The notes under the pieces are model-generated. The model made no database searches, was not told where the DNA came from, and saw nothing but the letters and a program-made list of their open reading frames with translations. From the NCBI GenBank assembly GCA_964473865.1, contig CAYYQN010000002.1, positions 145,793 through 209,792 on the forward strand: a DNA stretch of 64,000 nucleotides, given 5' to 3'. Shown piece after piece: positions 22,223 through 64,000 of this stretch (position 1 is its first letter; every line of letters begins with the position of its first letter). This stretch comes from an uncultured bacterium (GTDB lineage: Bacteria; Eisenbacteria; RBG-16-71-46; CAIMUX01). A program made the translations under genes and the position numbers.

Positions 22223-24145
22223 ATGCTGAGAGATCCAGACAGCCGCGTTCGTGGCGCCGATCGGTCGGGCGCGGGGCGCCGGGATCGGATTCCCGACGCG
22301 CGGGTCCTGGCGGCACTGGTCCTGGCCGCACTCGTCCTGGCGGCATTCGTCCTGGGAAGCAGCGGGTGTGCCTACTTCAACACCTTCTACTTCGCCAAGA
22401 AGTACTTCGCTCAGGCCGAGAAGCTCGCCCGCGCGGCCGGTTCGGACAAGGTTCCGCCCGACGCGATCCGCCGCTACGATGAGGCGATCAAACAAGCGAC
22501 CAAGGTGATCAAGTATCACGGCGGCAGCCGCTGGGTTGATGATGCGCTCTACCTCATGGGCGCTTCGTTCTATGGCAAGGGTGAGCACGAAGAGGCGCTG
22601 CGCAAGTTCGACGAGCTGGTGGCGAACTACCCCGAGTCCCGGTGGGTTCCCTGGGCGCTGTACAAGAGCGGCCTTTCCCACTACCAGCGCAAGAACGATG
22701 AGCTGATGGAGGCGTGTTTTCGTCGGGTGCTGAACGAGTATCCGGATTTTGAGCGAAGCGACGACATCTACTACACCGGAGCCCGGGCGGCCGAAAGGAA
22801 ACGTGACCGGGTGGAGGCGGTGCGGCGCTATCGCGAACTGGTGGAGCGATTCCCCCGTAGCGATCGCGGGCAGGAAGGGCTGCTGAGGATCGGCGATTTG
22901 TACTTCGACGCCGGTTACGCCGACAGCGCCTACACCAGCTACGCTGAGGCCTCTCGTCTCGCGCGCGATGAGCAGGGGATCCGCAACGCCGAGGTCAAGG
23001 CGGCGGATGCCCTGGTCCGACTGCAGCGGGCGCCCGAGGCGGTGCGGCAGCTCGAGCGGCTGCTACCGAGCGACGAGACGCAGATTCGGCCCGGCGAGAC
23101 GTGGCCGGCGCTGGTCCGGGTGCACCTGGCGCAGGCCTACAATGCCACCGCTCGACCCGCGGACGCTCTGGAGGCGTTGCGACTGGTGGTCACGAAGTAC
23201 CCGCAGTCGAGCTATGCCCCCGAGGCGCAGTTCCAGATCGGATACACGTACGAAGTCTATCTCGACTCGCTTGATGCCGCCCGCACCGCCTATGACCAGG
23301 TCGGGCGCTCCGGGTCGACCAGCGTGTTTCGAGACCAGGCCCAGACCCGCTCGCGGAATCTGGCCCAGCTGCAGACCCTGGCGTCGCAGGCGGCGTCCGA
23401 CTCCACGGCGGACTCGGACAAGCAGGCGGAGGCCCAGCTGCGGATCGCGGAGCTCTACCTTCTCTCCCAGAACAAGGTGTCGGAGGCGATCGCGAAGTAC
23501 CGGGAGGTGCGGGCCGAGTATCCAGGAAGCCGTTCCGCGCCGCGGGCTGCGTATGCGCTGGCCTGGATTCAGCTCCGGCGGATGGAAGGCCAACGGGACA
23601 GCGCCCTGACCGCGTTCGTGCAGTTGATCCGGGACTTCCCGACGTCGCCGGCGGCGCGTGGCGCACTCGAGCTCCTGGCGGCCGAGGGTGCGGACACGGC
23701 GGGGCTGAGCGCGCTCCTGGTGGAGGCCCCGCCTGATACCGCGGAAACCGATGCAACGACTCCGGCCCCGGCCCCGCCGTCGCCCGCGGATTCGGAAACC
23801 GGTGTCGCTCCTGGTGCGGCGCCGCCGGAAGCCGTCCGACCACCCACGACGGAAGCGCCGCCGGGAGTGCCCCTCGCCGACAGCGTCGGATTGCCGCCGC
23901 GTTTCAGCCCGATGTCGCAGGGAGATGCGCGCGCCGGGGCCCCTGCGGACACCACGCCGGCGGGACCCGGCGCGCTTCATCCGGACAGCCTGCCGGCGGC
24001 GGCCGACACCCTTCCACCGGACAGCCTGCCGGCGGGGGCCGACACCTTTCCGCCGGACACCATGCCGCCGAGACCCGGCGCGCGCCTTCCGGACACTCTT
24101 CGGGCCGCACCCGACACGCTCCCGCCCGGTCCGAGGCGGCCGTGA
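22223..24145 (+). CDS. TPR-repeat lipoprotein with a Pro-rich repetitive C-terminal tail, inserted inside the pyr operon
   Basis: Lipobox (VLGSSGC), then multiple TPR-like repeats (YbgF/outer-membrane-assembly-like). The C-terminal roughly 150 aa is Pro/Ala-rich with the tandem PDSLPAxADTxPPD repeats. Confidence 0.7.
   Translation: MLRDPDSRVRGADRSGAGRRDRIPDARVLAALVLAALVLAAFVLGSSGCAYFNTFYFAKKYFAQAEKLARAAGSDKVPPDAIRRYDEAIKQATKVIKYHGGSRWVDDALYLMGASFYGKGEHEEALRKFDELVANYPESRWVPWALYKSGLSHYQRKNDELMEACFRRVLNEYPDFERSDDIYYTGARAAERKRDRVEAVRRYRELVERFPRSDRGQEGLLRIGDLYFDAGYADSAYTSYAEASRLARDEQGIRNAEVKAADALVRLQRAPEAVRQLERLLPSDETQIRPGETWPALVRVHLAQAYNATARPADALEALRLVVTKYPQSSYAPEAQFQIGYTYEVYLDSLDAARTAYDQVGRSGSTSVFRDQAQTRSRNLAQLQTLASQAASDSTADSDKQAEAQLRIAELYLLSQNKVSEAIAKYREVRAEYPGSRSAPRAAYALAWIQLRRMEGQRDSALTAFVQLIRDFPTSPAARGALELLAAEGADTAGLSALLVEAPPDTAETDATTPAPAPPSPADSETGVAPGAAPPEAVRPPTTEAPPGVPLADSVGLPPRFSPMSQGDARAGAPADTTPAGPGALHPDSLPAAADTLPPDSLPAGADTFPPDTMPPRPGARLPDTLRAAPDTLPPGPRRP
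23960..24075 (+). repeat. Tandem, roughly 33-nt, coding repeat (ccggacagcctgccggcggSggccgacaccYttccRcc) within the TPR lipoprotein tail
   Basis: Two near-identical copies and a third degenerate copy are visible directly. They encode the PDSLPAAADTLP / PDSLPAGADTFP / PDTLRAAPDTLP units. Confidence 0.6.
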
Positions 24146-44526: not shown

Positions 44527-45912
44527 ATGCGCGTACTTCGCCACTTCGGTCTGATTGTCCTGATCGGACTTCTCGCGGTGTTGGAAGGCTGCGCCGCCTA
44601 TCGCGTGGGCGGCAAGCGGCTGACCAACGCGGACCTGACCATAGCGTCCTTCGGCTCCTTGCAGGGCGAACTCGCCCCCTGTGGGTGACACTCCAGCCAG
44701 AAGGGCGGGCTGGCCCGGCGGGCCAGCGTCATCGACTCGTTGATCGAAGCCCAGAGGCCCTTCATCCATCTGGAGTTGGGTGATTTCGCCAAGATCGACG
44801 ACGTGACCGGGGACTTCGAGACCCGGTTCATCTGGGACATCCTGGAGAAGACCAAGGTCACGGCCATCTCTCCCGGGCCGCGCGAACTGACGATGTGGAA
44901 CACCTTCGAGCAGCTGAAGGCGAGAGGAACGATTCCGGTCGTTTCTTCGAACCTGACCGTCACACGGGGCGGTGCCGAGACTCCGGTCGGCCTGCCCTAT
45001 CAGATCGCTCAGGTGAACGGCATCAAAGTCGGGCTGTTCGCCCTGATGGGAGGAGCCGAACTGGCGGGCGTGCGCGCACCCGACGGGGTGGAGTTCGGGT
45101 TCAAGGACCCGTTCGAGGTTGCCACAGCGCTGGTGCCCAAGCTTCGCCAGCAGGCGGATCTGGTGGTCCTCATGTCGGAGATGTCGACCGCCGACACCGA
45201 CCGACTGCTGCAGGCGGTCCCGGGAATCGGCGTTGCGCTCTACGGGCAGCGCGCAGGATGGGAGGCGGAGGCCCGCAAGAAGGGAGAGACGATCTGCCAG
45301 GAAACCGGCATGCGAGGGCAGTACGCCGGCGAGCTGGTCGTGATCCTCGACCCGGACGGTCGCCTGGTCGACTTCGGCTCCCGGAACCTGGCGCTGGACA
45401 AGGAAGTCCCGGAACAGGCCGATGTCCTGAGACTGGTCAACGAGGTCAACGAAAAGACCAAGACGATGCGTGCGGACGTGCGCAAGGCGCGCGAGGCGGA
45501 AGCGGCAAAGAAGACGACCACCGGCGAGCGCTACCTGGGAGGCGAGAACTGCCAGCGGTGTCATGGCGAGCAGTACCGCTCCTGGCAGGCGACGCCGCAC
45601 GCGCGGGCCTTTGCCACGCTCGACCGGCCGTTGCCGGGCAAGCCGAAGGCCGAGGGATGCGTCTCCTGCCATGCCACCGGCTATGGCGCAGGCGGGTTCC
45701 AGCCCGCTCCCTCGAGTCCTGACCTCCACCCGGCGCAGGCTGCGAGCATCGACTTCAGGAATGTGCAGTGCGAAGCCTGTCACGGACAGGGCACGTTGCA
45801 CCGGCGGACGGGTCGCGTGGAGGTGGCCGAAGCGGTCTGTCGCGGCTGCCACACGCCTGAGTGGTCGCCCGGATTCGACTACGCAGAGGCGATCCAGGCC
45901 GTCAAGCATTGA
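44527..45912 (+). CDS. Candidate selenoprotein: lipoprotein signal + degenerate 5'-nucleotidase/metallophosphatase-like domain + C-terminal tetraheme cytochrome c, read through one in-frame TGA (44686-44688)
   Basis: ATG 44527 gives a signal peptide (MRVLRHFGLIVLIGLLAVLEGC) in the same frame as ORF 44740..45912, separated only by a TGA in the context APCG-TGA-HSS. Downstream is a 5'-nucleotidase-like central region (IKVGLFALMGG...ADLVVLMSEMS...VPGIGVALYG) and four CxxCH heme motifs. Hairpin GCTGGCC-CGGCG-GGCCAGC at 44709-44727 lies 20 nt after the TGA. Confidence 0.45.
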
Positions 45913-46085: not shown

Positions 46086-46565
46086 GTGGATGCATTCGAG
46101 AGCTGCCTGAGGAATGGCCGGCTCAAGCGAGTCGAGCCGGACCCGGAGAAGATCGATAAGGAGATTCGGACGGCGATTTCCGAGTTGAGCCGTGCGCGGG
46201 GCTGCTACGCGGACGGAAACGACGAAGAGTGCGTGATCCAGTCGTACTTTGCCATGAACCGGGTGCTCCGGGTCCTGCTCCAGCGGCTGGGCTACCGCGA
46301 CACGAACGTCTACAGCCTGCTGGCGGGCCTGGACCACCTGTATGTGCAGCCGGGACGCATGGAGAGCCACCTTCTCGAGATCTTGAAGCTGGCCAAGGAT
46401 CAGAAGGACCTGGTGCAGGACGGGGCTCGTTGCGGGCGCAAGGAGACCCGACTGATCCTGAGCGGCGCCGAGGAGACGATGGAGGTTGCGCGGGAAGAGC
46501 TGGCCCTGGGCGAGATACCAGAACTCGATTCCCAGCCCGACGACCTTGAGGAACAGGTCGACTGA
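46086..46565 (+). CDS. HEPN-like helical domain protein (orphan)
   Basis: A 159-aa all-helical protein with a pattern similar to HEPN domains (N-terminal helix pair, conserved Arg/His-containing region GRMESHLLEIL). No adjacent nucleotidyltransferase partner. Confidence 0.35.
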   Translation: MDAFESCLRNGRLKRVEPDPEKIDKEIRTAISELSRARGCYADGNDEECVIQSYFAMNRVLRVLLQRLGYRDTNVYSLLAGLDHLYVQPGRMESHLLEILKLAKDQKDLVQDGARCGRKETRLILSGAEETMEVAREELALGEIPELDSQPDDLEEQVD

Positions 46566-46611
46566 TCGAGCCGGCCCCGGGCTCGTGCGGCTGGCGGACG
46601 GGAGTTCCACG

Positions 46612-49600
46612 GTGACCGGAGGTTCGGCCCGCGCGGGACTGCGGTGGAACCGGACGGACCGCAGTTCCGGCTTCGTTCGACGCTCTCTTTGTCTTGGCCT
46701 TCTCCTGCCTGTGGCCGCCATCCTCATCCCGATCCTGGGCGCGATGGCGGCGATTCCAACGGTCCGGCAGATCCTCCTTGTTGGCGCCGTCTCCAACGAG
46801 TCATTCGGTGGCAGCCGCCCCGCCGTCATCATCTTCAGCTTCGACCCGCCGGTGGAGCGGATCGCGACCGCGGCCGCCGGGATGGTCGAACCCGTTGCGG
46901 TGGCGGTCACCCCCGATCGGCGGCTGTACATAGCCGATGCGGGGGCGGATCCTCTGGGCCTGAATCGCTCCCGGGGTGCCATCTGGCTGGTGGATCCCGC
47001 TGCTCAGGTTGTGGCCCCGGCCCGCCTCGTGGTTGCCAATCAGCTGTTTCGCAAGCCGGCGGATCTGCTGCTGGAGTCGGACGGGAAGATCCTGCTCTTG
47101 GACGGCGATGCGGATCCCAACGAGTGGGGAGGTGCCAACGGCGCGATCTTCCGGATCGATCCCACGACCGGCAACGTGACCGTGCTTGCCGCTCCGCAGT
47201 CCTTCCTCGAGCCGCGCAGCCTGACGGTCGACCTCGACGGCACGCTCCTGGTTGTCGATGAGTCCGCCAACCCCCAGGGCGTATCCGATCCGGCCGGAGC
47301 GATCTTCCGGGTAAACCCCAGCACCGGCGTGGTCACCCTGGAGCGGGTCTTCCGCAGGGGCGATCGTCGCACGATCGTCGCCCCGGTAGCCATGACGGTG
47401 ATCGACCGGGGCGCCCGCCAGGGGGACTACCTGGTCGTGGACCACAATGCGGATCCCCACAATCGTGGCTCGAGTCCGGGCGACGTCTTCTATGTTCCCC
47501 GCGCCGGCGGTGACCCGCAGGACTTCACGCCGACCGCGGTGGCGGAGTTCTCCGAGCCAACGGACGTCATGATGGGCCTGGAGGACGATGTCTACGTTCT
47601 CGATCGGGTCGCCACCTCGGAGCAGGCGCCGCTTGGCCGGGGCGCGGTGTTCCGTCTTCGTCTGAGTGACGGCATGCTCCTGCAGTCGCCCAAGGTCTCC
47701 AGTGCCTTCCGAAACCTGAACACCTTTGTGCAGCTCTCGGGCGCGCAGCTCGACTCCTCCACCGTCACGCATGTGGATGAAACACCAGGGCTGCTGAGGC
47801 CCGGGGACATCGTCACGGTGCGCGCTCGGGTGCGCAACACGGGAACGGCGGATGCGCCTGCGGCCTCGCTCGAGGACACGCTGAAGGTCCAGCTTCAGTT
47901 CGTGCCGGGATCCGATTCGGTGGGGACCGGCCAGGCGTCGTATGATTCGGGCACGCGAAGGTTCTCCTGGTCGGGGCCCATTCCCCGCGGCGGCGAGACG
48001 ACCGTCCGCTTCCGCTTCAAGATCTCCGACTTCGCGATTCCCGGAGTCCGCCTGGATCACCGGATCGTGCTGCGAACCGACCGGACGCCCACCTCCTACC
48101 TCCGGCCGGTCACGCCCCAGCGCGAGTTCGCCGTCGGGTCCAACCTCTTTCTCGACGTCTCCGCCGGGGTCCAGAATTCCGGGGTCATCTACGTTGCGAG
48201 GGCCGACACCACCCGTCCGGAGCCGCTGAGCGAGGGCGGGCTCCTGGTGCGCCCCTCCGACGCGGTCTTCCTCGAAGATGGCCGGCTGGCCGTCCTCGAT
48301 CCGAGCAGCCCGGGCGGGCAGCTGGGTGCGGTCCTGGTCTACAGCTTCAATGCCACCGACACGCTGAGTGTCTTGCTGGCCCTGCGTCGGGAGCTGGGGT
48401 TTGCCCGGCCCTGGGGGCTGGCCCTCGATCGCGATGGTTCGCTTCTCATCACCGACATGGACGCGAATCCACAGGGCTACGCGTACACACCGCGAGATCC
48501 ATTTCGCATGGGCCCCGGTCCGGGGGCGGTATTCCGCTTCGATCCCGCCACCCGGGCGCTATCCGTCGCGGCGGCCAGCCCGGATTTCGAAGAGCCGGTG
48601 GACCTGGCGGTGGACCGGCGCGGGAAGCTCGTGATTGTGGACTACCTCGGCGGCGAGGAGCTGCAGGGAACCTTGTGGGAGATCGATCGGTCGACCGGTG
48701 CGCAGCAGAAGATCGTGCTCGACGCCCTCCGTTTCAAGAACCCGACCGGAATCACGGTCGACGCCGCCGACGATCTCTACGTTACCAGCTATCGCGCAAC
48801 GGACGGCCCCAACCCCGTAGGTGGCGCCGTGTACAAGGTACGTCGGGGAACACCGGTGACCGTCTCCGTCGCCTCGGCGGATACCCTGCTGCGGCAGCCC
48901 GCCGACGTGACCGTCAACCAGACGGACGGCAGCCTGCTGGTGGCGGACAAGGATGCGAACCCCGAACACCTTCCGGAAGCGGACCGCGGCGCGCTCTTCA
49001 AGCTGAATCGGTCCACCGGGGAGGTGAGCGTGGTTTCGGCATCCGGTTTGATGCGCCAACCCGACGGTGTGGTGTCCTTCGGCTGGCCCGAACTGGGCGG
49101 GAGCCGGCTCAGCCTGCGGACACGACTGTCGGGGGATCCTCGTCCGGGCGACACGTTGTGGGCCGACGTGCAGGTCATCAACAGCGGCCTGCGCTCCTCG
49201 CCGCAGACGTTGGCGTCTCTGACCTTCGGGAGCCCGTCCCTGCAGGTGCTTCCGGCGGTTTCCCCGGTCAACGGCCTGAGCATCGACGTGCTGGGCAATC
49301 GGGCCTCGTGGACGGGACGAGTGGCATGGGGAGACACGATGCGCTTCTCGGTGCCCAGCCTCGCGCGCGCCAGTGACTCCTATGGCGGGCTGGCCACAGT
49401 TTCCCTCGTCGTGCTGGGGGGGCGCACGGTCTACTCCTCCAGCGCCTGGCGTCCGGTGCGTTCGGAGTTCCGGCCCAATGACCTCCTGCTGGTGGACAGC
49501 GGCGCCGATCCCAATCGAGTCGGCGTGCCGATCGGCGCCGTCTTCCGACTGGGGGTGGAGGCGCTCGACCCGACCCGCCTCGTCTACACGCACTCCAGCC

Positions 49601-52365
49601 TCGTGGGGCTCTCCGCGGCGGAGTGGACACCAACGGGCGATCTGCTGGTCGCGGCGAGCCGCGGGGACGCCCCGGGGGCGCTGTACCGGTTCGACACCGC
49701 TTCGGGATCCCTGGTGCAGTCGGGGACGGTCGACCGTAGGATCAAGACCCCCGTGGACCTGCTCTACGGTCCGGAGGGCGACCTCCTGGTCGTGGACGAG
49801 GATGCTCAGGAGCTTGGCTTGTCCCTGCCGGCGCGGGGCGCGATCTTCTCGCGGCGGGGTACCGGCGCCTATGAGCTCTTCTGCGCGGACTCGTCGTTCC
49901 GGGTTCCGGCCCAGGCCGCCTTCGGTCCCGGCGGAATGCTCTATCTGGCGGACAGCGAAGCCAACCCGGACAGCGCTTCAGGGAACACCGGAGCGGTGTT
50001 CACGATCGACCCGAGCAGTCGAAAGGTGGTGGGTTGGCTGCAGGACCCGGCGATTCCGCAGCCTTGCGGCGTCACTGTCTATGACGACTCGACCCTCCTG
50101 ATCAGTGATCCGATCGGGGCCACGCCGACCAGCCCGCGTGGCACCCTCATGCTCTACCGGCCGGGCAGCGCGACCCGGCTGGAACCTCTCATCTCCTGGC
50201 CGGGCCTCCGGTCGCTCTGGCGCGCGCTGCGCCATCCCGCCGGCAAGTTGATCCTGCTCGATCGCGAAGGAAAGCATCTCGGCCAGACCGGCTTGGGGTT
50301 GGTGCGGGAGTACGATCCGGTCTCGCGCCGCTTCTCGGAGTACGCCTGGTCGGACTCCTTTGCGGTGATCTCCGACCTGGTGATGAAGCCGGGGCCGATC
50401 GTGACGTTTCCGCGATACGACTGGTCGGACGTGAACGGCCCGCCGATCCACCCGGCGGATCGCCTGAGCTGGCGCGCAGTCCTGCACAACATCGGCGTGG
50501 CCGAGGCTGCGGGGGTGGCCTACTGCGACAGCGTACCGGCAGAAACGGCGGTCATACCCGAGTCAGCCGACGCGGTGGGCGGAGGGGGCACGCCACAGGG
50601 AGTGATCAGTTTCGACGAGAGCCGGGCCCTGCGCTGGTCAGGGACGATTGCGCCCGGCGATTCCGTGGTCATCTCCTACGATGTGCAACTGAATCCGGCG
50701 GTGGCGGAGGGGCGGTTGCTCACGTTTCATCCGACAGTCTCAAGCTCCGGCGGGACCACCCTGGGCCGGACGGCGAAGCTGCAAACCTTTGTCCCGCTGG
50801 AACAGGGATATGCCTATGTCGTCGACCTCGGTGCGGATCCGTTTGGCGAGTCAGGTACCGGGCAGGCCGGAGCGCTCTTCAAGGTCAGCCTCACGACCGG
50901 AGCCACGGTTCCCATGGTCACCAGCCCCCTGTTCCGCCGGCCGACGAGCGTGGCGATGGTGGGAAGCAGTGCGGCGCCGCGATTCCTGATCGCCGACATC
51001 GCCGGCCGCAATCAGCTCAACCGGATCGGGACCCTGTTCCTGTTCGATCCGGCGACCCGCGAGGTGCGAAACATCGGCGGCCACATCGATTTCCGGGGGC
51101 TGGTCAAGGTGCTGCCGTGGACGGAGACGACGGCGTTGGTGCTCGACTCCAAGGCCGATCCCGAGAGCCTCTACAGCGGCACGGTTGTTGGTCCCGGTGC
51201 AATCTTCAAGGTGGACCTGGAGACCGCCGAGATCACGCCGGTCTTCTCGGACACCACTTTGAAGGCGCCCCTTTCCATGGACTGGCTCCAGCCGGGTGTC
51301 CTGGCCATCGCCGACAGCCAGGCGGATCCCAACGGTTCGGGCACTCCGGGAACCGGGGCAATCTACCGCCTGAATCTTGCCAGTGGGGATCTTCAGCTCT
51401 TCGCGACCTCCACCGATTGGCGGACCCCCGGAGCCGTCTGCTCGGACCTCCACGGCGGCCTGCTGCTCGTCGATCGCGACGCCACGCCGTACGAGGCGGG
51501 CGGCGGGTACGGCTCGGTCTTCGAGATCACGCCGCAGGGCACGGTCTCCAAGATCTCCGTGTCTCGCTTTTTCGTGGCTTTGAGGGACGTCCAGGCGGAG
51601 CTGGATGGCGATCCGCTCGTCACCGACGGAGATGCCGATCCCTACAAAGTCGGCGGGGCTCCGGGCGCCCTCTTCCGGTATGTGACCGGCCGGCATGTTC
51701 CGATCGCCTCCTCCCGCCAGTTCGTGGATCCCGGCGGATTCGTGATCTACGGAGACCCGACGCCGGTGGATCTGCTGGAGGCCGCGGCCGACAGCGTCGC
51801 GGAGGGGATCCGGTTGCGCTGGCGGGCGGGGCCCGACGAGAGTGGGGTGCGGTGGCTGCTCTTCCGTCGCACCGCCGGCGGTCCCGACGATCCGGGAGAC
51901 GCCACGCCCGCAGGGTACGATCCGGTTGGGGGGGACCAGGAGTTTCTTGGGGCCGGACCCCACGAGTACCTGGATCGCGCCGTGACCGGCGGACAGTGGT
52001 ACGCCTATCTGGTGGCGCGCGTGGGGACCGACGGGGGTGTCGACTACTCCGCGCCGTTGCTGGCCCACGCTCCCGGGACGGTCGCGCGGCTCGATCTTCG
52101 CCCCGCGGCGCCCAGCCCGTTCTCCGGGCGGACCGGCTTCATCTTCTACGTTCCGGCACCAGGCGGTCGGGTTCGGCTGGAGGTGTTCGACGTGGTCGGA
52201 CGGCGTGCCCGCGTCCTCCACGACGCTCCGGCAGCCCCCGGGCGGCACGCTCTGGGGTGGGACGGGCGCGATGACTCCGGCCGGCGACTCCCGTCCGGGG
52301 TCTATTTCGCGCGACTGAGCCTGGGGGACGACACCCGGACCCGGCGGATCGTGCTCACCCGTTGA
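46612..52365 (+). CDS. Giant (about 1,900 aa) secreted repeat protein: at least 13 copies of a roughly 110-aa beta-propeller-like repeat plus a C-terminal T9SS sorting domain
   Basis: GTG 46612 gives an Arg-rich n-region, h-region and AMA-like cleavage site (LCLGLLLPVAAILIPILGAMA). Recurring units contain hxDxDA[DN]P followed by GA[IV]F[RK][IV][DN]P. The C-terminal roughly 90 aa match the T9SS type-A C-terminal domain pattern (RVRLEVFDVVGRRARVL...HALGWDGRDDSGRRLPSGVYFARL). Confidence 0.7.
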   Translation: MTGGSARAGLRWNRTDRSSGFVRRSLCLGLLLPVAAILIPILGAMAAIPTVRQILLVGAVSNESFGGSRPAVIIFSFDPPVERIATAAAGMVEPVAVAVTPDRRLYIADAGADPLGLNRSRGAIWLVDPAAQVVAPARLVVANQLFRKPADLLLESDGKILLLDGDADPNEWGGANGAIFRIDPTTGNVTVLAAPQSFLEPRSLTVDLDGTLLVVDESANPQGVSDPAGAIFRVNPSTGVVTLERVFRRGDRRTIVAPVAMTVIDRGARQGDYLVVDHNADPHNRGSSPGDVFYVPRAGGDPQDFTPTAVAEFSEPTDVMMGLEDDVYVLDRVATSEQAPLGRGAVFRLRLSDGMLLQSPKVSSAFRNLNTFVQLSGAQLDSSTVTHVDETPGLLRPGDIVTVRARVRNTGTADAPAASLEDTLKVQLQFVPGSDSVGTGQASYDSGTRRFSWSGPIPRGGETTVRFRFKISDFAIPGVRLDHRIVLRTDRTPTSYLRPVTPQREFAVGSNLFLDVSAGVQNSGVIYVARADTTRPEPLSEGGLLVRPSDAVFLEDGRLAVLDPSSPGGQLGAVLVYSFNATDTLSVLLALRRELGFARPWGLALDRDGSLLITDMDANPQGYAYTPRDPFRMGPGPGAVFRFDPATRALSVAAASPDFEEPVDLAVDRRGKLVIVDYLGGEELQGTLWEIDRSTGAQQKIVLDALRFKNPTGITVDAADDLYVTSYRATDGPNPVGGAVYKVRRGTPVTVSVASADTLLRQPADVTVNQTDGSLLVADKDANPEHLPEADRGALFKLNRSTGEVSVVSASGLMRQPDGVVSFGWPELGGSRLSLRTRLSGDPRPGDTLWADVQVINSGLRSSPQTLASLTFGSPSLQVLPAVSPVNGLSIDVLGNRASWTGRVAWGDTMRFSVPSLARASDSYGGLATVSLVVLGGRTVYSSSAWRPVRSEFRPNDLLLVDSGADPNRVGVPIGAVFRLGVEALDPTRLVYTHSSLVGLSAAEWTPTGDLLVAASRGDAPGALYRFDTASGSLVQSGTVDRRIKTPVDLLYGPEGDLLVVDEDAQELGLSLPARGAIFSRRGTGAYELFCADSSFRVPAQAAFGPGGMLYLADSEANPDSASGNTGAVFTIDPSSRKVVGWLQDPAIPQPCGVTVYDDSTLLISDPIGATPTSPRGTLMLYRPGSATRLEPLISWPGLRSLWRALRHPAGKLILLDREGKHLGQTGLGLVREYDPVSRRFSEYAWSDSFAVISDLVMKPGPIVTFPRYDWSDVNGPPIHPADRLSWRAVLHNIGVAEAAGVAYCDSVPAETAVIPESADAVGGGGTPQGVISFDESRALRWSGTIAPGDSVVISYDVQLNPAVAEGRLLTFHPTVSSSGGTTLGRTAKLQTFVPLEQGYAYVVDLGADPFGESGTGQAGALFKVSLTTGATVPMVTSPLFRRPTSVAMVGSSAAPRFLIADIAGRNQLNRIGTLFLFDPATREVRNIGGHIDFRGLVKVLPWTETTALVLDSKADPESLYSGTVVGPGAIFKVDLETAEITPVFSDTTLKAPLSMDWLQPGVLAIADSQADPNGSGTPGTGAIYRLNLASGDLQLFATSTDWRTPGAVCSDLHGGLLLVDRDATPYEAGGGYGSVFEITPQGTVSKISVSRFFVALRDVQAELDGDPLVTDGDADPYKVGGAPGALFRYVTGRHVPIASSRQFVDPGGFVIYGDPTPVDLLEAAADSVAEGIRLRWRAGPDESGVRWLLFRRTAGGPDDPGDATPAGYDPVGGDQEFLGAGPHEYLDRAVTGGQWYAYLVARVGTDGGVDYSAPLLAHAPGTVARLDLRPAAPSPFSGRTGFIFYVPAPGGRVRLEVFDVVGRRARVLHDAPAAPGRHALGWDGRDDSGRRLPSGVYFARLSLGDDTRTRRIVLTR

Positions 52366-52408: not shown

Positions 52409-53104
52409 CTAGCGAGTGAGCCAGCTTCGGTCGGTGAAAACCGGCGGAGCGGGGCGCGGGCGGCGTGGCGTCACCAGACGAACCAGGGCGAGACCGGCCG
52501 CGAACCCACCGAGGTGGGCGAACCACGCCACACCACCCCCGGTCTGCGTATGGGCGAACCCCGCGCTCAGGGCCTGAAAGCCGAACCAGATTCCCAGCCA
52601 GATCGCCGCCGGTACCGGTATGATCCGGAGAAACACGATCAGGATGACCAGGGTATGAACCCGCGCGCGGGGGAACAGGACGGCATACGCTCCGAGGACG
52701 CCGGCGATCGCTCCACTGGCGCCGACCATCGGGACGTCCGACCCGGGGGCCGCCGCCCACTGCGCGAGCCCGGCGAGAACCCCGCAGCCGAGATAGAAGG
52801 GGATGAACCGGGCGCGGCCGAGGTGGTCCTCGATGTTGTTTCCGAAGATCCACAGGTAGAGCATGTTCCCGCCCAGGTGGACCAGCCCGCCGTGCAGAAA
52901 CTGCGATGTGATGAGCGTCAAGAGGGAAGTCGCCACTCCCGCGGACAGCAGGGCGGGGCGGAAGGCCAGCGCAGTCATGAACGCCGTGTCGGTCTCGGGC
53001 GAGATGGCGAGCCGAACCAGGAATAGCGAACAATTCAGCAAGATCAGCCCGAGCGTGAGAGCCGGGAATCGAGCGGTCGGATTGTCGTCTTTGAGTGGGA
53101 ACAT
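52409..53104 (-). CDS. Rhomboid-family intramembrane serine protease
   Basis: Six or seven TM helices with the rhomboid catalytic GASGAI Ser motif and a downstream conserved His (AWFAHLGG). Confidence 0.8.
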   Translation of the reverse strand: MFPLKDDNPTARFPALTLGLILLNCSLFLVRLAISPETDTAFMTALAFRPALLSAGVATSLLTLITSQFLHGGLVHLGGNMLYLWIFGNNIEDHLGRARFIPFYLGCGVLAGLAQWAAAPGSDVPMVGASGAIAGVLGAYAVLFPRARVHTLVILIVFLRIIPVPAAIWLGIWFGFQALSAGFAHTQTGGGVAWFAHLGGFAAGLALVRLVTPRRPRPAPPVFTDRSWLTR

Positions 53105-58061: not shown

Positions 58062-61000
58062 CTACGGGACCAGGAGCGCCTTTCGCGTCACCACCCGGCC
58101 GTTCGTGCTCAGCCGCTGGAAATACAGGCCGGCGGGCAGGAGGCGGTCGTTCCGGTCGCGTCCGGTCCAGGTGACGGTGTGGGTTCCCGCGGGCAGCACG
58201 CCGTCCAGGATCCGCTGCCGGCAGCGGCCCTGGATGTCGAAGATCTCCAGCCGCGCGGAGGCGGTCCGGTCCAGAGAGAAGCGGATCGGCGCACCCGGGC
58301 GGACCGGATTCGCCATCTCCTCGCCAAAGCCGAAATGCGCGCCGACCTCGTCGGACACGCCGCTGGGGGGAAGTCCGATGTAGACGATCTGGACATCATC
58401 CACCGCCGCCTCCACGGTTGACGGCGTCCCTTCGTCGGAGGCCTGGAATCGGAACCGCATCTGCGTCGTCAGCGTCAGGCGGGAGGCGAGGTCGAACTCC
58501 TGATACAGCCAGGCACGGTTGGACCGGGTCGTTCGCTCGAGGTCGGTCCAGGTCGCTCCATCGTCGTTGCTTGCCTGTACGACCCATACGTCATCCGCCG
58601 CGCCGCCCGTGTTGTTGGTATACCACCTCCAGTAGCGCAACAGCACCGTGCCGTCGAACGCGCAATCGACCCGGGGCGACGTCAAGGTGGTCAGCCCTCC
58701 ATCCACGTCATTCGTGTCCGGGCCGGATCCCGGAGGAGCGTTCCCGGTGACCCAGCAGATGACACCGGGTTCAGGGGTGTGGTCGTCTTCGGGCTGCACC
58801 GGGAACTCCTCGTTCCACGTGCCATTCGGGTCGGCACGCTCCCACAGGCCGCCGGTGGCGTCGTCCGCAGGCGAACCCACGGTCCAACCAGTGTCCGTCT
58901 CGAGATCGTCCTGCCAGGCGGACAGGAGCGGGCCCACCCAGAAGCGGTATGGGATCCCTGGTGCCTGCGCCGGAAGCCTCGTTTCGTTCCCGCCGCCGTC
59001 TTTCACGACCATGTAGTAGTCGATGCGCGTCGTCCAGCTCTGGGCCGGGATCTCGCCGCGGTAGGAATTCGGGCCGTCCGCGACCATGGGAACGATCTCG
59101 AAGGGGCCATCCGAGACCCGGAAGCGAAGCGAGATCTCGGAGAACACCGACATATCCGTCGCCGAGATCCGGACCTGGTGAGCGCTGAGGGTGTCCGGAG
59201 TGGAGACCGGACTCTGCAGGATGCTCACCACCGGGGCCACGATGTCGTTCAAGAGGAGCTGCGGCGCGGCGACGCCCCCCGCGGGAACGTTGACGCTGGC
59301 CGTGTCGGGCGCGAATCCGGCGCGGCTTGCCACCAGGGTATAGCGCCCGGCCAGCTCGGTTCCTTCAAAGGTGCCATCCGGACCGCTGTAATACTGGTGT
59401 CCATTCTCCAGTACCGACACGGTGGCTCCCGGCAGGGCCGCACCTCCCGAAGACGCGTTGCCCACGGTGCCGGAGATCGCGCCGATGAGAATCTCCCGGG
59501 TCGGCACGAACTTGATGGCCCGATTGGCGACGAGCGTGGCCGCTCCCGCGGGGTACTGGTTGAAGTACGTGTAGAGCAGCCCACCGAGGTTGTCCGGCGT
59601 CTCGATTCCGACGGTCGCATAGCCGTCTTGCGAGTCCACGTTGCTCACGGCTTTGTACTGGAACACGATGATGCCATCACCGGTCTCGGTTGTGTGGTAG
59701 GCGGGATCATAGAAGATCGCCTGGACGGTCTCCGTGCTGCTGCCCACGATGTTCCGCATGCGGCTCCATTCAACGACCCAGAGGTGGTTGGCGGCGTCGT
59801 ACCACTGGTAGACATGGCCGGCGGGGCTCGTCACTTCGATCAAGTCGTCCCAGAACACGGCGATGACCCCGTTGGGGCCTCCCGGACTGGGAAGGGTCCA
59901 GTTGCGGTAGTCGGTGAGATAAGTCGACCCCATCGCGATCCACCCGTTGCTGCATACGGTGGCGGTCGTGTAGCTCTGCCCGTAGTAGGTGAACGCGAAG
60001 GGGAGCGTCACGGTTCTCGACTTGTCCTGGTAATCGCCATAGTCGCCGAGTGTGATCTGGCTCCCCGGCCCGCCCAGGCCGGGATCGACCTCGATCCAGC
60101 TGTAGACCGGGGCGTCGGGATACGCGACGTCTGAGTTGTCGTAGGCATAGTACCCGTACTCATCCGGACCGATCGGGTCGGTGCTGCTCCGGGAGCCGAC
60201 GGGAAGCGAGAAATCGACGGTGTCGCTCATGGCCTCGTTGTAGTCGAGGATCATGCGGAGGGCCGCCTCGTAGCCTCTCGGGCAGTCAGAGCGCGCATGA
60301 ACGCTGAAGGGGTGGCCGGTGTTGGCCTGCGAGAGGCCGGGCGACATCTCCGGGTATCCGGAACTGCCCACGGGCACATCCACGTACTCGCTACCGGAGA
60401 GAAGAGTCGCCGTGACTCCGGCGGCGACGATCTCACCGTCGTTGCGGAGGGTGACGGTGAGGGTCACGGTCTCGCCCGGGTCGAAGACTCCCCCGGGGCC
60501 CGCGTCCCCGACCGCGTGGGACGCATGCTGGAGATCGGCGGCGACCACCGGGATCTCGACGACTGAGTGACTCGGGGCCGACCCGTCGGTGGCGTCCAGG
60601 CCGAAGCGAAGAAGATGGCCATGCGGGCAGTCCCCGCGGACCGCGAACCCGAAGTCATCCAGGCTCCAGGCGGCCGCGCCGCCGGCTATCTCTCCGTAGA
60701 TCTCCGCCCCGTCGGTGATCTCCACGTATGGATCGTCCGTGGTGATCTCGGCGGCTACCCCACTTGCGGTCGCGGTGCCGTAGTTGTGCAGCTGGACCTT
60801 CAGCTCGACCGTTTCCCCCGGGTTGACAGAGCCGTCACCGTCTCCTTGGCTTTCGCCGAGACCGTCGTCATCGACCTGCAGAGCCTCGAATCCCAGGAAC
60901 CCGTCGGAATCCGTCACCGGAACATCGGTCAGGTAGGGCCGCCGGTCGTGCTTGGTGACCGTGAGCTTGAAGACGCCCGCCGCCGCCGGGGGCAGGGCCA

Positions 61001-62948
61001 GCTCGCACTGCCCCAGCTCGTCGGTGGTCCCGGTGATGCGAACCTCTCCGCCGGCATCATTCCGATACAGGCAGACGAGCGCTCCGGATTCGGGCGAGCC
61101 GTTCTCGCTCGCAGTGACGGTGAATGAGTTCGCCCCCACCGGCAGGCTGGGGGAGTGGGTGACGCTCACCGGCATCGGGACCGCCGACCAGACGGCGCAA
61201 GCCGGGTCGCCCATGAGGTTGTTCCAGTGGGAGTAGATTGCCACGGAGTTCGGGGCGTTCGACTGGTAGTTCAGGTAGAGGTTCAGCTTGCCCCAGGTGT
61301 GGGCCGCCCCCGTTTCCCAGGCCCCATGGTGCAGCAGGCCCCAGAAGACCCCCAGGGTGAAGCAGTTGTTGAACCGGGTGTGGGTTCCGCTGGTGGCGGT
61401 GCCGATCGCCCCGATGGCCCCCTTGGGTGTGGTTGCCGTGCCGGCCCGGAGGAACTGCTCGGTCCGAGAGGTGCCGCTCGCAAAGGAGCCGGTGTCGCAT
61501 GTGCTCATGCAGCCGAATGGCATCTTCCAGCCATTGGTCAACGTATTGGTGTTGCTGTTGCCCCAGCCGCTCATCCCCTGGATGCCGCGATAGCAGAAGA
61601 TGGTGTCGCCTCGGTTCAATGCCGTGGCCATCTGGCTGACGAAGCTACCGGTGAAGACGGTATCGATCTGCGCGTATCCCAACTGCAGCAGACGGGTCTT
61701 GATCCACTGCTGCACCTGGACACAACTGTAGCCGGAGGCTTGGGGGTCCCCCACGAGGCAGGCCCGCGTATACCAGGCGGTGTCGCTCAGGTACGGCGTG
61801 CTCTCGTACCCGACCGTCTTGGCCACGATCGTCTGGAGCTCAGTCAGGGTTCCGAACGAGAGGCGGCCGATCAGGATGTCGGAGAGAACATCGCCGCCGG
61901 CGAGTTGTGTGTAGGGGTGATCGCCTTCGCCCCCATAGCCGGAGAGGCTCTCATACCAGGTCGCCACGCTGTACGTGCCTCCTCCGTCGCCGGCCAGGAC
62001 CACATACTCGGGCGGAATCGGCCAGTAGTTGTAGGCATTCTGTATATAGGCCTTGATTGCCGTGGCCGACGTGCCGGTTTCGGCCGTAGTCGCGAGCTTG
62101 ACCGGCAGGCCCTGACGCTGCCGCCAGGCCAGCAACGGCTGCAGGTGGGAAACCACGGTCGCGTTGTTGGGACAAATGACCAGATACGTGCCGTGCTGAA
62201 TGGCCTGGCCGCGGGGCGGGCCGCTGTAACCGAGCACCAGCTGCCGATAGATGTTGTCGAAGGATGGAGGGACGGGACGGGAGCGGGATGGCGGCGTGTT
62301 CCGCAGATCCTCTCCGGCGTAGGCAACATCCACCGTCAGCCGCCGCGCGATCAGGAGCGATCCACGCGAGGGGTCGTAGCGCACCGGGGAGAAACGGATC
62401 GGTACGACCCGCAGATCGCCCAGGAGGGCCGGCTCACCCGCCGTGGCCCAGGGCTCGTTCCCGTATCCGGTGCGCGCGTAGGCCGCCGGATCGTAGGCGA
62501 AGGCGGCTGTCTGCTCGTCCTGCATCGGCACCAGCCGGAAGCCGCTGACTTCTTCCTCTTCCTGCACCGTGGCAATCACCGTCACGCCGGCCCGATCCGG
62601 CACCATCACGAACCGACCGAAGGTGGGCAGGACGGGTGCGCCCAGAGCCCCGTCGTCCCCGCCGCCCGGAATTGCCAGAGATTGGAAGGTGATTCCGTCG
62701 ATGTCCAGGTCTTCCACGACCAGGGCGGGAAGAGCGAATTCCGCGCGCAGGCCGGTGGTCGATTGCGAGACGACTCGCAGTTCGGGCAGCGAGCTCTCCG
62801 AACCGGTACCGAGGACGCGCGGTGCGGCGATCGCCCCGTTCGACAACCATCCGGTCAGAGCCAGGCTCACGGCGAGGATGGCGAAAGGCTGGCGACCGTT
62901 GGCGGCTCTGGATGCAGCGCTGGTTGGCGCCGATGGGTCTTGCGGCAT
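58062..62948 (-). CDS. Gingipain-like cysteine peptidase (family C25) multi-domain protein with T9SS C-terminal sorting domain
   Basis: Signal peptide. C25 peptidase core (YLVICPNN...VVLAGDGGG...HPYTQLAGGDVLSDILIGR; Cys region MPFGCMSTCD). Several Ig/CARDB-like and MAM/choice-of-anchor-like beta domains. The last roughly 80 aa match the T9SS C-terminal domain pattern (ARLEIFDIQGRCRQRIL...HTVTWTGRDRNDRLLPAGLYFQRL). Confidence 0.7.
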   Translation of the reverse strand: MPQDPSAPTSAASRAANGRQPFAILAVSLALTGWLSNGAIAAPRVLGTGSESSLPELRVVSQSTTGLRAEFALPALVVEDLDIDGITFQSLAIPGGGDDGALGAPVLPTFGRFVMVPDRAGVTVIATVQEEEEVSGFRLVPMQDEQTAAFAYDPAAYARTGYGNEPWATAGEPALLGDLRVVPIRFSPVRYDPSRGSLLIARRLTVDVAYAGEDLRNTPPSRSRPVPPSFDNIYRQLVLGYSGPPRGQAIQHGTYLVICPNNATVVSHLQPLLAWRQRQGLPVKLATTAETGTSATAIKAYIQNAYNYWPIPPEYVVLAGDGGGTYSVATWYESLSGYGGEGDHPYTQLAGGDVLSDILIGRLSFGTLTELQTIVAKTVGYESTPYLSDTAWYTRACLVGDPQASGYSCVQVQQWIKTRLLQLGYAQIDTVFTGSFVSQMATALNRGDTIFCYRGIQGMSGWGNSNTNTLTNGWKMPFGCMSTCDTGSFASGTSRTEQFLRAGTATTPKGAIGAIGTATSGTHTRFNNCFTLGVFWGLLHHGAWETGAAHTWGKLNLYLNYQSNAPNSVAIYSHWNNLMGDPACAVWSAVPMPVSVTHSPSLPVGANSFTVTASENGSPESGALVCLYRNDAGGEVRITGTTDELGQCELALPPAAAGVFKLTVTKHDRRPYLTDVPVTDSDGFLGFEALQVDDDGLGESQGDGDGSVNPGETVELKVQLHNYGTATASGVAAEITTDDPYVEITDGAEIYGEIAGGAAAWSLDDFGFAVRGDCPHGHLLRFGLDATDGSAPSHSVVEIPVVAADLQHASHAVGDAGPGGVFDPGETVTLTVTLRNDGEIVAAGVTATLLSGSEYVDVPVGSSGYPEMSPGLSQANTGHPFSVHARSDCPRGYEAALRMILDYNEAMSDTVDFSLPVGSRSSTDPIGPDEYGYYAYDNSDVAYPDAPVYSWIEVDPGLGGPGSQITLGDYGDYQDKSRTVTLPFAFTYYGQSYTTATVCSNGWIAMGSTYLTDYRNWTLPSPGGPNGVIAVFWDDLIEVTSPAGHVYQWYDAANHLWVVEWSRMRNIVGSSTETVQAIFYDPAYHTTETGDGIIVFQYKAVSNVDSQDGYATVGIETPDNLGGLLYTYFNQYPAGAATLVANRAIKFVPTREILIGAISGTVGNASSGGAALPGATVSVLENGHQYYSGPDGTFEGTELAGRYTLVASRAGFAPDTASVNVPAGGVAAPQLLLNDIVAPVVSILQSPVSTPDTLSAHQVRISATDMSVFSEISLRFRVSDGPFEIVPMVADGPNSYRGEIPAQSWTTRIDYYMVVKDGGGNETRLPAQAPGIPYRFWVGPLLSAWQDDLETDTGWTVGSPADDATGGLWERADPNGTWNEEFPVQPEDDHTPEPGVICWVTGNAPPGSGPDTNDVDGGLTTLTSPRVDCAFDGTVLLRYWRWYTNNTGGAADDVWVVQASNDDGATWTDLERTTRSNRAWLYQEFDLASRLTLTTQMRFRFQASDEGTPSTVEAAVDDVQIVYIGLPPSGVSDEVGAHFGFGEEMANPVRPGAPIRFSLDRTASARLEIFDIQGRCRQRILDGVLPAGTHTVTWTGRDRNDRLLPAGLYFQRLSTNGRVVTRKALLVP

Positions 62949-63162: not shown

Positions 63163-64000
63163 TCACTTCAAGCGGAGCAGTTTCTCCACTCGGTGACGGT
63201 CTCCGCTGTCGAGCCGGTAGAAGTAGATTCCGGACGGCACCCGGGCGCCGGAGTCGTCCCGCCCATCCCAAACCAGGGAGTGGGCCCCGGCTGCGACGGG
63301 GCCGTCCACCAACCGGCGGACCATCCGGCCGGCGGCATCGAATACGGCCAGCCGGACCGGACCGTCCCGCTCGACGGAGAACGACAGGGTCGTGCCCCCG
63401 GCGAACGGATTGGGATGCCCCGGCTCGAGCGCGAGGACCGACGGTCCGGCGGCCGGTGCCGGCACATCCGAGAGCTCGCCCGCGTACACTTCCAGCGTGA
63501 AGTCGTCGACGGCGGCTTCCACCAGCCCCGGCTGGCCGTTGTCGCAGGCGACGAACCGGAAGACCACCTGGTCCGTGAGGGTGATCGCCTTCGTGAGGTC
63601 GAAGGCGCCCTCGCCCCACTCAGTCATGGCCTCGGGCACCCGCTCCAGCGGCACCCAGGTGGTGCCCCCGTTCGACGAGACATCCACCGCGAACTGGTCA
63701 TCGAGGACAGCGCCGCCTTCGCCCCACCAGCGCCAATAGCGGACCAGGGCCCACGTGACGTCGGACAGGTCGAAGACCGGGCTGCGCAGTGTGGTGCAGC
63801 CACCGTCCACATCGGCATCTCCGGGAGGACCGTAGGGCACGCCGTTGCCGGTGACGAAGCACTTCACACCGGAATCCGGAGAGTGATCGTCCTCCGGCTG
63901 GATCGGTTGGGTGCCGTACCAGGTTCCGACCGGGTCGTCCCGGGTCCAGACGCCGGAGGTGGCCCAGTCGCCGGTCATCCCGATCTGCCAACCTTCGGCG
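63163..64000 (-). CDS. T9SS-sorted secreted protein, 3' part only (the 5' end lies beyond the window). Paralogous to the distal domain of the C25 protein.
   Basis: C-terminal T9SS domain (VRLAVFDAAGRMVRRLVDGPVAAGAHSLVWDGRDDSGARVPSGIYFYRL). The preceding roughly 170 aa align with residues of the 58062..62948 protein (EDDHSPDSGVKCFVTGN...VDGGCTTLRSP...RYWRWW...AAVDD). The frame remains open at base 64000. Confidence 0.6.
   Translation of the reverse strand, partial: AEGWQIGMTGDWATSGVWTRDDPVGTWYGTQPIQPEDDHSPDSGVKCFVTGNGVPYGPPGDADVDGGCTTLRSPVFDLSDVTWALVRYWRWWGEGGAVLDDQFAVDVSSNGGTTWVPLERVPEAMTEWGEGAFDLTKAITLTDQVVFRFVACDNGQPGLVEAAVDDFTLEVYAGELSDVPAPAAGPSVLALEPGHPNPFAGGTTLSFSVERDGPVRLAVFDAAGRMVRRLVDGPVAAGAHSLVWDGRDDSGARVPSGIYFYRLDSGDRHRVEKLLRLK

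Follow-up and report, generated by a model that had tools for sequence, protein, structure and literature searches.

The window analysed here is a 64,000-nt stretch of DNA from an uncultured bacterium of the Eisenbacteria (GenBank assembly GCA_964473865.1, contig CAYYQN010000002.1, positions 145,793 to 209,792 of the forward strand), and our subject is the giant gene at positions 46612..52365 (+) of that window, which comprises 1,917 codons plus a stop according to the open reading frame (ORF) list and the translation. The list shows one uninterrupted ORF at 46486-52365 (+), within which a GTG codon at 46612 provides the start, seven nt downstream of a Shine-Dalgarno-like GGGAG (46600..46604, +) that can be read directly. 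The resulting 1,917-aa protein agrees with the length of about 1,900 aa given in the first-pass annotation of this DNA and is compatible with the lengths of the full-length orthologs (n = 18; 1,900-1,922 aa). The GC content at third codon positions is 0.83, equal to that of the neighbouring genes. Inspection of the translation by eye, rather than by a predictor, suggests an N-terminal signal peptide at aa 1-46 (46612..46749, +): the n-region is rich in Arg, the hydrophobic core LCLGLLLPVAAILIPILG is long, a cleavage-type A-M-A site follows, and there is no lipobox. Behind it lie three successive units of a six-bladed NHL-type propeller and an immunoglobulin (Ig)-like spacer, then a fourth propeller, a fibronectin type III-like (Fn3-like) domain and a C-terminal domain resembling the type A sorting domain of the type IX secretion system (T9SS). 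A phmmer search of the PDB with the full protein returned no match, and a scan of a genome collection with the window protein found no relative; the same scan with one ortholog, P0011, found its own Eisenbacteria metagenome-assembled genome (MAG) only.

The blade and its NHL ancestry

The protein had been described as an array of at least 13 copies of a motif recurring in a unit of about 110 aa. All 13 quoted copies were found, and the motif is real: D..A[DNT]P occurs 13 times in the protein, whereas 5,000 shuffles gave 0.19 copies on average and never more than 3. The copies lie at aa 109, 164, 216 and 277 in propeller 1, at 615 and 779 in propeller 2, at 962 and 1114 in propeller 3, and at 1405, 1512, 1568, 1621 and 1672 in propeller 4. 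The unit length was not borne out: where motifs are adjacent they are spaced 51-61 aa apart, and a blade hidden Markov model (HMM), seeded with the 13 copies and iterated, recognises 22 blades, spaced 52.5 aa apart at the median (range 47-61). The motif positions are kept across the 18 orthologs. The larger gaps that had been averaged into the longer unit turn out to be degenerate blades and interposed Ig-like domains; both the Ig spacers and the four-propeller organisation had gone unnoticed. A 23rd, weak match of the blade HMM (aa 1817-1854) falls in the C-terminal domains and was rejected as a blade. Adding two degenerate N-terminal blades to the 22 gives a total of about 24, among which the 13 strong copies are the best preserved.

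The HMM blades form four groups, at aa 91-352, 545-808, 944-1241 and 1383-1699. Because the four modules (propeller plus Ig, spacer included) are 25-29% identical to one another in pairwise comparisons over about 400 aa, the true large repeat of this protein is a propeller-plus-Ig module of about 435 aa.

Propeller 1 (aa 50-362; 46759..47697, +) is delimited by an AlphaFold2 (AF2) model, DSSP, the blade HMM and profile matches in the PDB. The first-pass annotation had proposed a structure prediction for one or two repeat units, and the model of module 1, which covers aa 45-505 and was built with 15 orthologous sequences (predicted local distance difference test, pLDDT, 90.2; predicted template modelling score 0.82), shows a standard propeller of six four-stranded blades followed by a beta-sandwich, with 23-24 strands in its DSSP list. 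The connections between strands B and C are 10-13 residues long in this model, with a pLDDT of 85-95 by block. Two of the six blades, at aa ~54-90 and 312-352, are degenerate; the first reads ILLVGAVSNESFGGSRPAVIIFSFDP, and we infer that this blade is closed by a C-terminal strand. The best-scoring blade of the protein (63.7 bits) lies at aa 145-193 (47044..47190, +) and reads LFRKPADLLLESDGKILLLDGDADPNEWGGANGAIFRIDPTTGNVTVLA. It runs from strand A to a strand B that ends in the invariant Asp, continues with A-D-P and an eight-residue loop, enters strand C as G-A-I-F-R, and passes through DPTTG to strand D, with the four DSSP strands at model residues 105-110, 116-120, 134-139 and 144-149.

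The other three propellers were assigned from the blade HMM. Propeller 2 (aa 506-812; 48127..49047, +) has five HMM blades and a degenerate first blade, and its assignment draws also on module homology, the module being 27.7% identical to module 1 over 405 aa; its motif at aa 615 carries a 23-residue loop. Propeller 3 (aa 941-1245; 49432..50346, +), for which the module alignments were used as well, and propeller 4 (aa 1381-1705; 50752..51726, +) have six HMM blades each.

Several comparisons identify the blade as a member of the NHL family. Pfam NHL (PF01436) matches the window protein with 64.4 bits against a gathering threshold (GA) of 20 (E = 5.9e-18), its matches ending at model position 19-20 of 28. 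In the PDB, the propeller 1 profile significantly matches NHL propellers only (TRIM71, TRIM2/3, PknD, Brat), and a profile of 85 blades matches Pizza designs, PknD, TRIM71 and the teneurin NHL domain with E = 2e-27 to 1e-13, all of these matches being limited to profile positions 2-22, that is, to strands A-B up to the invariant Asp. When the 85 ADP-loop blades were aligned by hhalign with 120 canonical NHL blades from other proteins, 40 columns were aligned with a single 9-residue gap, which falls exactly between D..A[DN] and G-A-h-F. On the strength of this profile, hhalign and model evidence, the unit is an NHL blade of ~52 aa that carries a conserved, ordered insertion of ~9 residues in its B-C loop (P-x7-8-G). 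The earlier view of the repeat as beta-propeller blades of the NHL/SGL kind is thus upheld by Pfam NHL, the PDB profiles and the AF2 model alike.

Judged by their residues, strands A-B are canonical NHL (P-x-x-h-x-h-D-x-D-G-x-h-h-h-h-D). What distinguishes the blade comes next: where NHL blades make a tight B-C turn, D-x-x-N-x-R-[IV], this one has D-x-x-A-[DN]-P, followed by 7-8 loop residues (range 5-18) and by G-A-h-F, as summarised in the consensus of 147 blades, G-x-h-h-h-h-D-x-x-A-[DN]-P-x(7-8, range 5-18)-G-A-h-F-[RK]-h-[DN]-P-x-T-G. No copy of the canonical turn D-x-x-N-x-R-[IV]-x-x-F is present in the window protein or in the proteins built from ADP-loop blades. Compared with NHL propellers such as the PknD sensor domain, Pizza, TRIM71 and Brat, the window propeller has the same six four-stranded blades and a strand A-B of the same P-x-G-h-a-h-D-x-x-G-x-h-h-V-a-D type, and it retains both the Asp at the end of strand B and the Asn/Asp after it; it differs in that D-x-x-A-[DN]-P-x(7-8)-G-A-h-F is about 9 residues longer and in that Pfam coverage is confined to positions 1-19 of 28. 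In Pizza, the blades of which recur every 42 residues and align with ours in the A-B half alone, we read the turn as about four residues.

Elsewhere, there is a partial likeness to the latter half of the blade. The GloVer "choice-of-anchor" repeat (TIGR03803) and DUF6923 share with it G-G-x-x-G-A-I-F-R-I-D-P-x-T-G-x-V-T, but the likeness is limited to about 22 residues and both scores lie below their cut-offs (31.1 bits, E = 1.4e-7, cut-off 44 for TIGR03803; E = 0.0046, cut-off 27 for DUF6923). The signature had been called distinctive, and we likewise found no library model for the motif; the ADP-loop subtype is without a dedicated Pfam or NCBIfam model. The proposal of a new repeat family is not upheld and is scaled down to a modest but discrete variant of the NHL blade, with no new fold: strands A-B are canonical and the whole blade aligns with NHL blades in hhalign apart from the 9-residue insertion, which is distinctive and has no library model. 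The apparent novelty of a 110-aa repeat is corrected to an NHL blade with a loop insertion, in a four-propeller, Ig-spaced protein conserved across uncultured Candidatus Eisenbacteria.

Relatives and database matches

When 1.84 billion representative proteins were searched exhaustively by HMMER with the blade profile (threshold E <= 1e-3), there were 46,710 matches, mostly to the canonical half alone. Among the 145 new proteins in the best 150 matches, each protein has either ADP-loop turns or D..N.R[ILV] turns, and none has several of both; P0034 and P0066 (relatives are given here by their P numbers) each have one isolated ADP-loop match, set among 31 and 9 canonical turns, respectively. By these turn counts the ADP-loop blade is a discrete subtype.

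Full-length orthologs, of about 1.8-1.9 thousand aa, fall into about 35-40 clusters at 50% identity, and the named ones all belong to Candidatus Eisenbacteria. The giant protein is thus a representative of an uncharacterised and largely lineage-specific family, built wholly from known folds. One ortholog, from an Eisenbacteria MAG, is split into four consecutive fragments (P0065, P0168, P0040 and P0170; NCBI MEZ4653243-46), which points to a frameshifted or mis-assembled copy that inflates the apparent count of "short" relatives; P0065 and P0040 were accordingly rejected as independent short relatives.

Independent small ADP-loop proteins do exist, and include P0182 (a single propeller with a signal peptide only), P0151 (a GDSL lipase fusion), P0166 (with Big_7) and P0157 (from Planctomycetota). 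P0110, P0172-P0181 and P0182, all from metagenomes, make up a separate family of 350-500 aa with one six-bladed ADP-loop propeller, most members of which (P0110 and P0172-P0181) end in C-terminal RTX (repeats-in-toxin) nonapeptide repeats, and the RTX fusion suggests that these proteins are type I secretion substrates. More distant members of the small family, P0192 among them, have a shorter loop, D-P-x-A-x-G-G-x-G-G-L-I.

The best-scoring NCBIfam model for the window protein is ScyD/ScyE (NF033206), with 92.4 bits against a cut-off of 80, a score that is the sum of four partial stretches. The small ADP-loop proteins obtain 22-75 bits from the same model, and Pfam NHL matches them partially or not at all. 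Because these single-propeller relatives score only 22-75 bits, we regard the match as an additive artefact of four propellers and reject membership of the ScyD/ScyE family. ScyD and ScyE, which are periplasmic and belong to the cyanobacterial scytonemin cluster, resemble the window protein in being secreted six-bladed propellers without an established biochemical role (PMC4870267), whereas the window locus has no scytonemin gene neighbourhood and comes from another phylum.

Databases name the relatives generically or by automatic transfer ("hypothetical", "YvrE lactonase", "YncE", "streptogramin lyase"). At least a few hundred environmental proteins that now bear such names would be better annotated with a dedicated profile.

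Spacers, export and function

The three spacers are Ig-like domains. Spacer 1 (aa 363-505; 47698..48126, +) is of the DUF11/CLIPPER-CARDB type, with 35.2 bits for Pfam DUF11 (GA 24.6) and 33.4 for TIGR01451 (cut-off 24), and is a beta-sandwich in the AF2 model. Spacer 2 (aa 813-940; 49048..49431, +) was recognised by homology to spacer 1 and by a PGD...N.G motif in the alignment. Spacer 3 (aa 1246-1380; 50347..50751, +) is DUF7927-like; its Pfam score of 24 bits is under the GA of 31, and DUF7927 is recorded in 16 of the 18 orthologs. The isopeptide Lys expected in strand A, upstream of PGD, has no conserved copy in any of the three spacers across the 18 orthologs in an alignment judged by eye, where Trp, Thr and Arg occur instead, and in a phmmer search of the PDB spacer 1 could not be aligned usefully with the CLIPPER structure 9IFR. 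When the two-domain model of propeller and spacer was submitted to Foldseek, the matches were mostly integrin alpha chains (propeller plus thigh domain; template modelling score, TM, 0.3-0.4), which we treat as an architectural coincidence and not as homology.

The last propeller is followed by an Fn3-like beta-sandwich (aa 1706-1825; 51727..52086, +), assigned from the AF2 model and from tandem Fn3 pairs in Foldseek, and by the C-terminal FlgD_ig / T9SS type-A-like sorting domain (aa 1826-1917; 52087..52362, +), assigned from Pfam, TIGR04183, PDB profiles and AF2. The model of aa 1700-1917 (pLDDT 84) contains two beta-sandwiches, with Foldseek matches to tandem Fn3 pairs and the Vpr peptidase; the C-terminal domain in it has seven strands (aa 1833-1915, pLDDT about 90) in a beta-sandwich fold that is not specific to T9SS. 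Pfam FlgD_ig matches the domain with 27.8 bits against a GA of 27. The first-pass assignment of a T9SS-type C-terminal domain was supported by the orthologs: all 13 C-termini scanned match TIGR04183 (T9SS type A; best E = 2.3e-8) as well as the C-terminal region of PorU, 10 of the 13 match PorZ, and UniProt labels one ortholog a "T9SS type A sorting domain-containing protein". Taken together, these profile matches make T9SS export of the giant protein likely.

The reading that we favour is that of a Sec- and T9SS-exported, surface-held, non-catalytic and multivalent binding scaffold, to which we give a probability of roughly 0.6, with high confidence in its anatomy and about even confidence in its function. 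The protein would be exported by Sec, would then pass the outer membrane by the type IX system via its C-terminal domain, and would remain attached to the cell surface. There its four propeller faces may bind a polymer, a protein or a surface without catalysis, set apart by Ig-like and Fn3-like domains that would serve as rigid spacers in the manner of fibrillar adhesins. In propellers, the B-C and D-A loops lie on one face, usually the one that binds ligands. Because these connections share a face, each propeller should present a crown of six ordered, extended B-C loops there.

A comparison with fibrillar adhesins fits this proposal in part. DUF11 (now CLIPPER) and DUF7927 are CnaA-like stalk domains of cell-surface fibrillar adhesins (PMC12617251), and the window protein has in common with such adhesins a signal peptide, binding-type domains, CnaA-like Ig domains, a C-terminal sorting domain and very great length. 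It differs from them in that its Ig domains are interleaved singly with propellers rather than stacked in tandem as a stalk, and in that the strand-A isopeptide Lys is missing from its spacers.

A number of points weigh against the scaffold proposal, or at least call for caution. The TIGR04183 score of the window protein itself, over its last ~90 residues, is 18.6 bits when the full protein is scanned and 22.9 when only the C-terminus is, in each case short of the cut-off of 23. PDB profile matches are stronger for FlgD (3e-8) than for the PorU C-terminal domain (0.0068), and Foldseek was unable to separate the domain from generic Fn3/Ig pairs. Moreover, the T9SS core machinery (SprA/Sov, PorV, PorU, PorK-N) was not found in the 64-kb window, and we found no literature linking Eisenbacteria to T9SS. 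With regard to the propellers, the six-blade count was modelled for module 1 and is extended to modules 2-4 by homology, and the placement of the loops on one face derives from propeller topology. Finally, automated Joint Genome Institute (JGI) names for relatives include "sugar lactone lactonase YvrE", and the best single-domain Foldseek match is RPA3624, a six-bladed lactonase propeller (TM 0.63, target-normalised, over 299 columns).

The points on the C-terminal domain, from the two sub-threshold TIGR04183 scores to the lack of a core gene in the window and of literature on the phylum, could be explained if that domain were a generic Ig domain of the FlgD/Vpr type and the protein were not a T9SS substrate, being periplasmic or exported in some other way. 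We consider this unlikely, since TIGR04183 and PorU in all 13 ortholog C-termini, with PorZ in 10, and the UniProt name of the ortholog speak for a sorting domain, and since three large secreted proteins of the window that are unrelated to one another all end in this domain, one of them being a C25 peptidase and another passing TIGR04183 at 28 bits.

The lactonase name and the RPA3624 match lead to the second alternative, in which the propellers would be enzymes of the six-bladed class that includes SGL/lactonase, strictosidine-synthase-like and PAL-like proteins, and the ADP loops would shape the entrance to an active site. Pfam Lactonase (PF10282) indeed matches with 25 bits (GA 21.7), over 61 of 344 positions, and there are faint SGL matches in the orthologs P0011, P0012 and P0014. 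The blade length, about 50 aa, is also that of the SMP-30/gluconolactonase/LRE-like (SGL) and lactonase propellers. The blade probably also shares with the SGL consensus a strand C/turn of the form "...h-x-R-h-D-P-x-T-G". At the same time, Pfam SGL (PF08450) has no match to the window protein at E <= 1, the lactonase names are automatic COG transfers, and the protein differs from SGL and lactonase propellers in having four tandem copies with Ig spacers and no conserved metal ligands of the Glu/Asn/Asn/Asp type. The residues of propeller 1 that are invariant in 15 sequences belong to the blade framework (P, D, G, A), and they include no His, Cys, Glu or Tyr, nor an Asn of the tunnel-metal-binding kind; in the module alignments, the four propellers, tandem copies that have diverged to 25-29% identity, share no conserved residues beyond that framework. 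Because the invariant residues are framework residues and the propellers share nothing further, the alignments argue against a lactonase- or lyase-type active site, and we hold the enzyme explanation to be quite improbable.

A third alternative, first raised in the first-pass annotation as a calcium site, would make the D-x-D-A-D-P loops sites for calcium or another cation, in a 24-site metal-dependent array. A DxDxDG loop supplies oxygen ligands from positions 1, 3 and 5 and has Gly at position 6. In favour, the first Asp never varies among the 147 blades and position 5 holds Asp in 79 and Asn in 61 of them; the AF2 model has ordered loops; and the related single-propeller family is fused to RTX calcium-binding repeats. 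Set against this, position 3 is Asp in 47/147 blades (32%), position 4 is Ala in 143/147 (97%) and position 6 is Pro in 100%, a composition that departs from the DxDxDG pattern and speaks against the calcium site as far as sequence can; the Asp and Asn/Asp fall in the same alignment columns as the structural D and N of the turn in canonical NHL blades, where they are framework residues; and the RTX fusion signals type I secretion and is uninformative on calcium binding by the propeller. We therefore give a cation array little credence.

A more novel suggestion is that the insertion A-[DN]-P-x7-8-G defines a functionally distinct class of propeller, in which six ordered acidic loops around the top face would form a new cation-, mineral- or glycan-binding site; this we regard as a long shot. 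If it were true, Eisenbacteria would display 24 such sites per molecule on the cell surface, next to a conserved MtrC-like multihaem cytochrome and LptD, and other bacteria would export the same module alone or via RTX/type I secretion. The protein opens no long-standing question, and would be of greater interest only if the loop crown were a new ligand- or metal-binding site. As for a genuinely new ~110-aa repeat unrelated to known propellers, the second half of the blade (the loop plus GAIFRxDPxTG) is unmatched in NHL structures of the PDB and lies past the end of the Pfam NHL matches, but the 52.5-aa period, the NHL strands A-B, the hhalign alignment and the AF2 propeller refute it and leave it next to no chance.

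Two other window proteins have C-terminal tails of the kind seen in the giant protein. The first, of 1,628 aa (58062-62948, -), contains Propeptide_C25, Peptidase_C25 (153 bits), CARDB/DUF11, CarboxypepD_reg and a C-terminal FlgD_ig domain, and is a cysteine peptidase of the gingipain/PorU family with the giant protein's C-terminal domain; it scores 25 bits on the PorU equivalog model, for which the cut-off is 420. The third window protein with such a tail, of 271 aa (63163-63978, -), has a C-terminus that matches TIGR04183 with 28 bits (cut-off 23) and FlgD_ig with 45. Elsewhere in the window, a tetratricopeptide repeat (TPR) protein of 640 aa (22223-24145, +) matches YbgF/CpoB and BamD above their cut-offs and PorW/SprE weakly (66 bits vs 250); we rejected it as the T9SS component PorW, as YbgF/BamD explains it better.

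Gene neighbourhood

The gene order around the giant gene is common to three loci, the window and two orthologous loci, and consists of LptD, a small ORF, a multihaem cytochrome, an ORF of 159-169 aa, the giant gene, NYN_YacP, a TPR protein and MnmA. These neighbours are housekeeping genes, and offer no operon-level hint of function. Comparing the window with one of the orthologous loci, L001, we find that the giant gene, at 65% identity, is the most diverged of seven shared genes, the others ranging from 74 to 96%, and such divergence fits a surface-exposed product.

The gene of a rhomboid intramembrane protease (52409-53104, -; Pfam 116.8 bits), which shows weak similarity to rhombosortase (35.5 vs 84), converges on the giant gene from its 3' side; neither of the two orthologous loci examined has it there. 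In all three loci the giant gene is immediately preceded by the 159-aa ORF (46086-46565, +), which looks helical by eye, has no obvious signal peptide and is 96% identical to its L001 counterpart, compared with 74-80% for the other neighbours. With no Pfam, NCBIfam, PADLOC or PDB match, it was set aside as a functional partner. The multihaem cytochrome (44740-45912, +, in the window; 8143-9279 in L001) has kept its place between LptD and the giant gene in each of the three loci, and matches Cytochrome_C554 with 47.7 bits and MtrC/MtrF domain II/IV with 29.7 bits, the latter just under the GA of 30.

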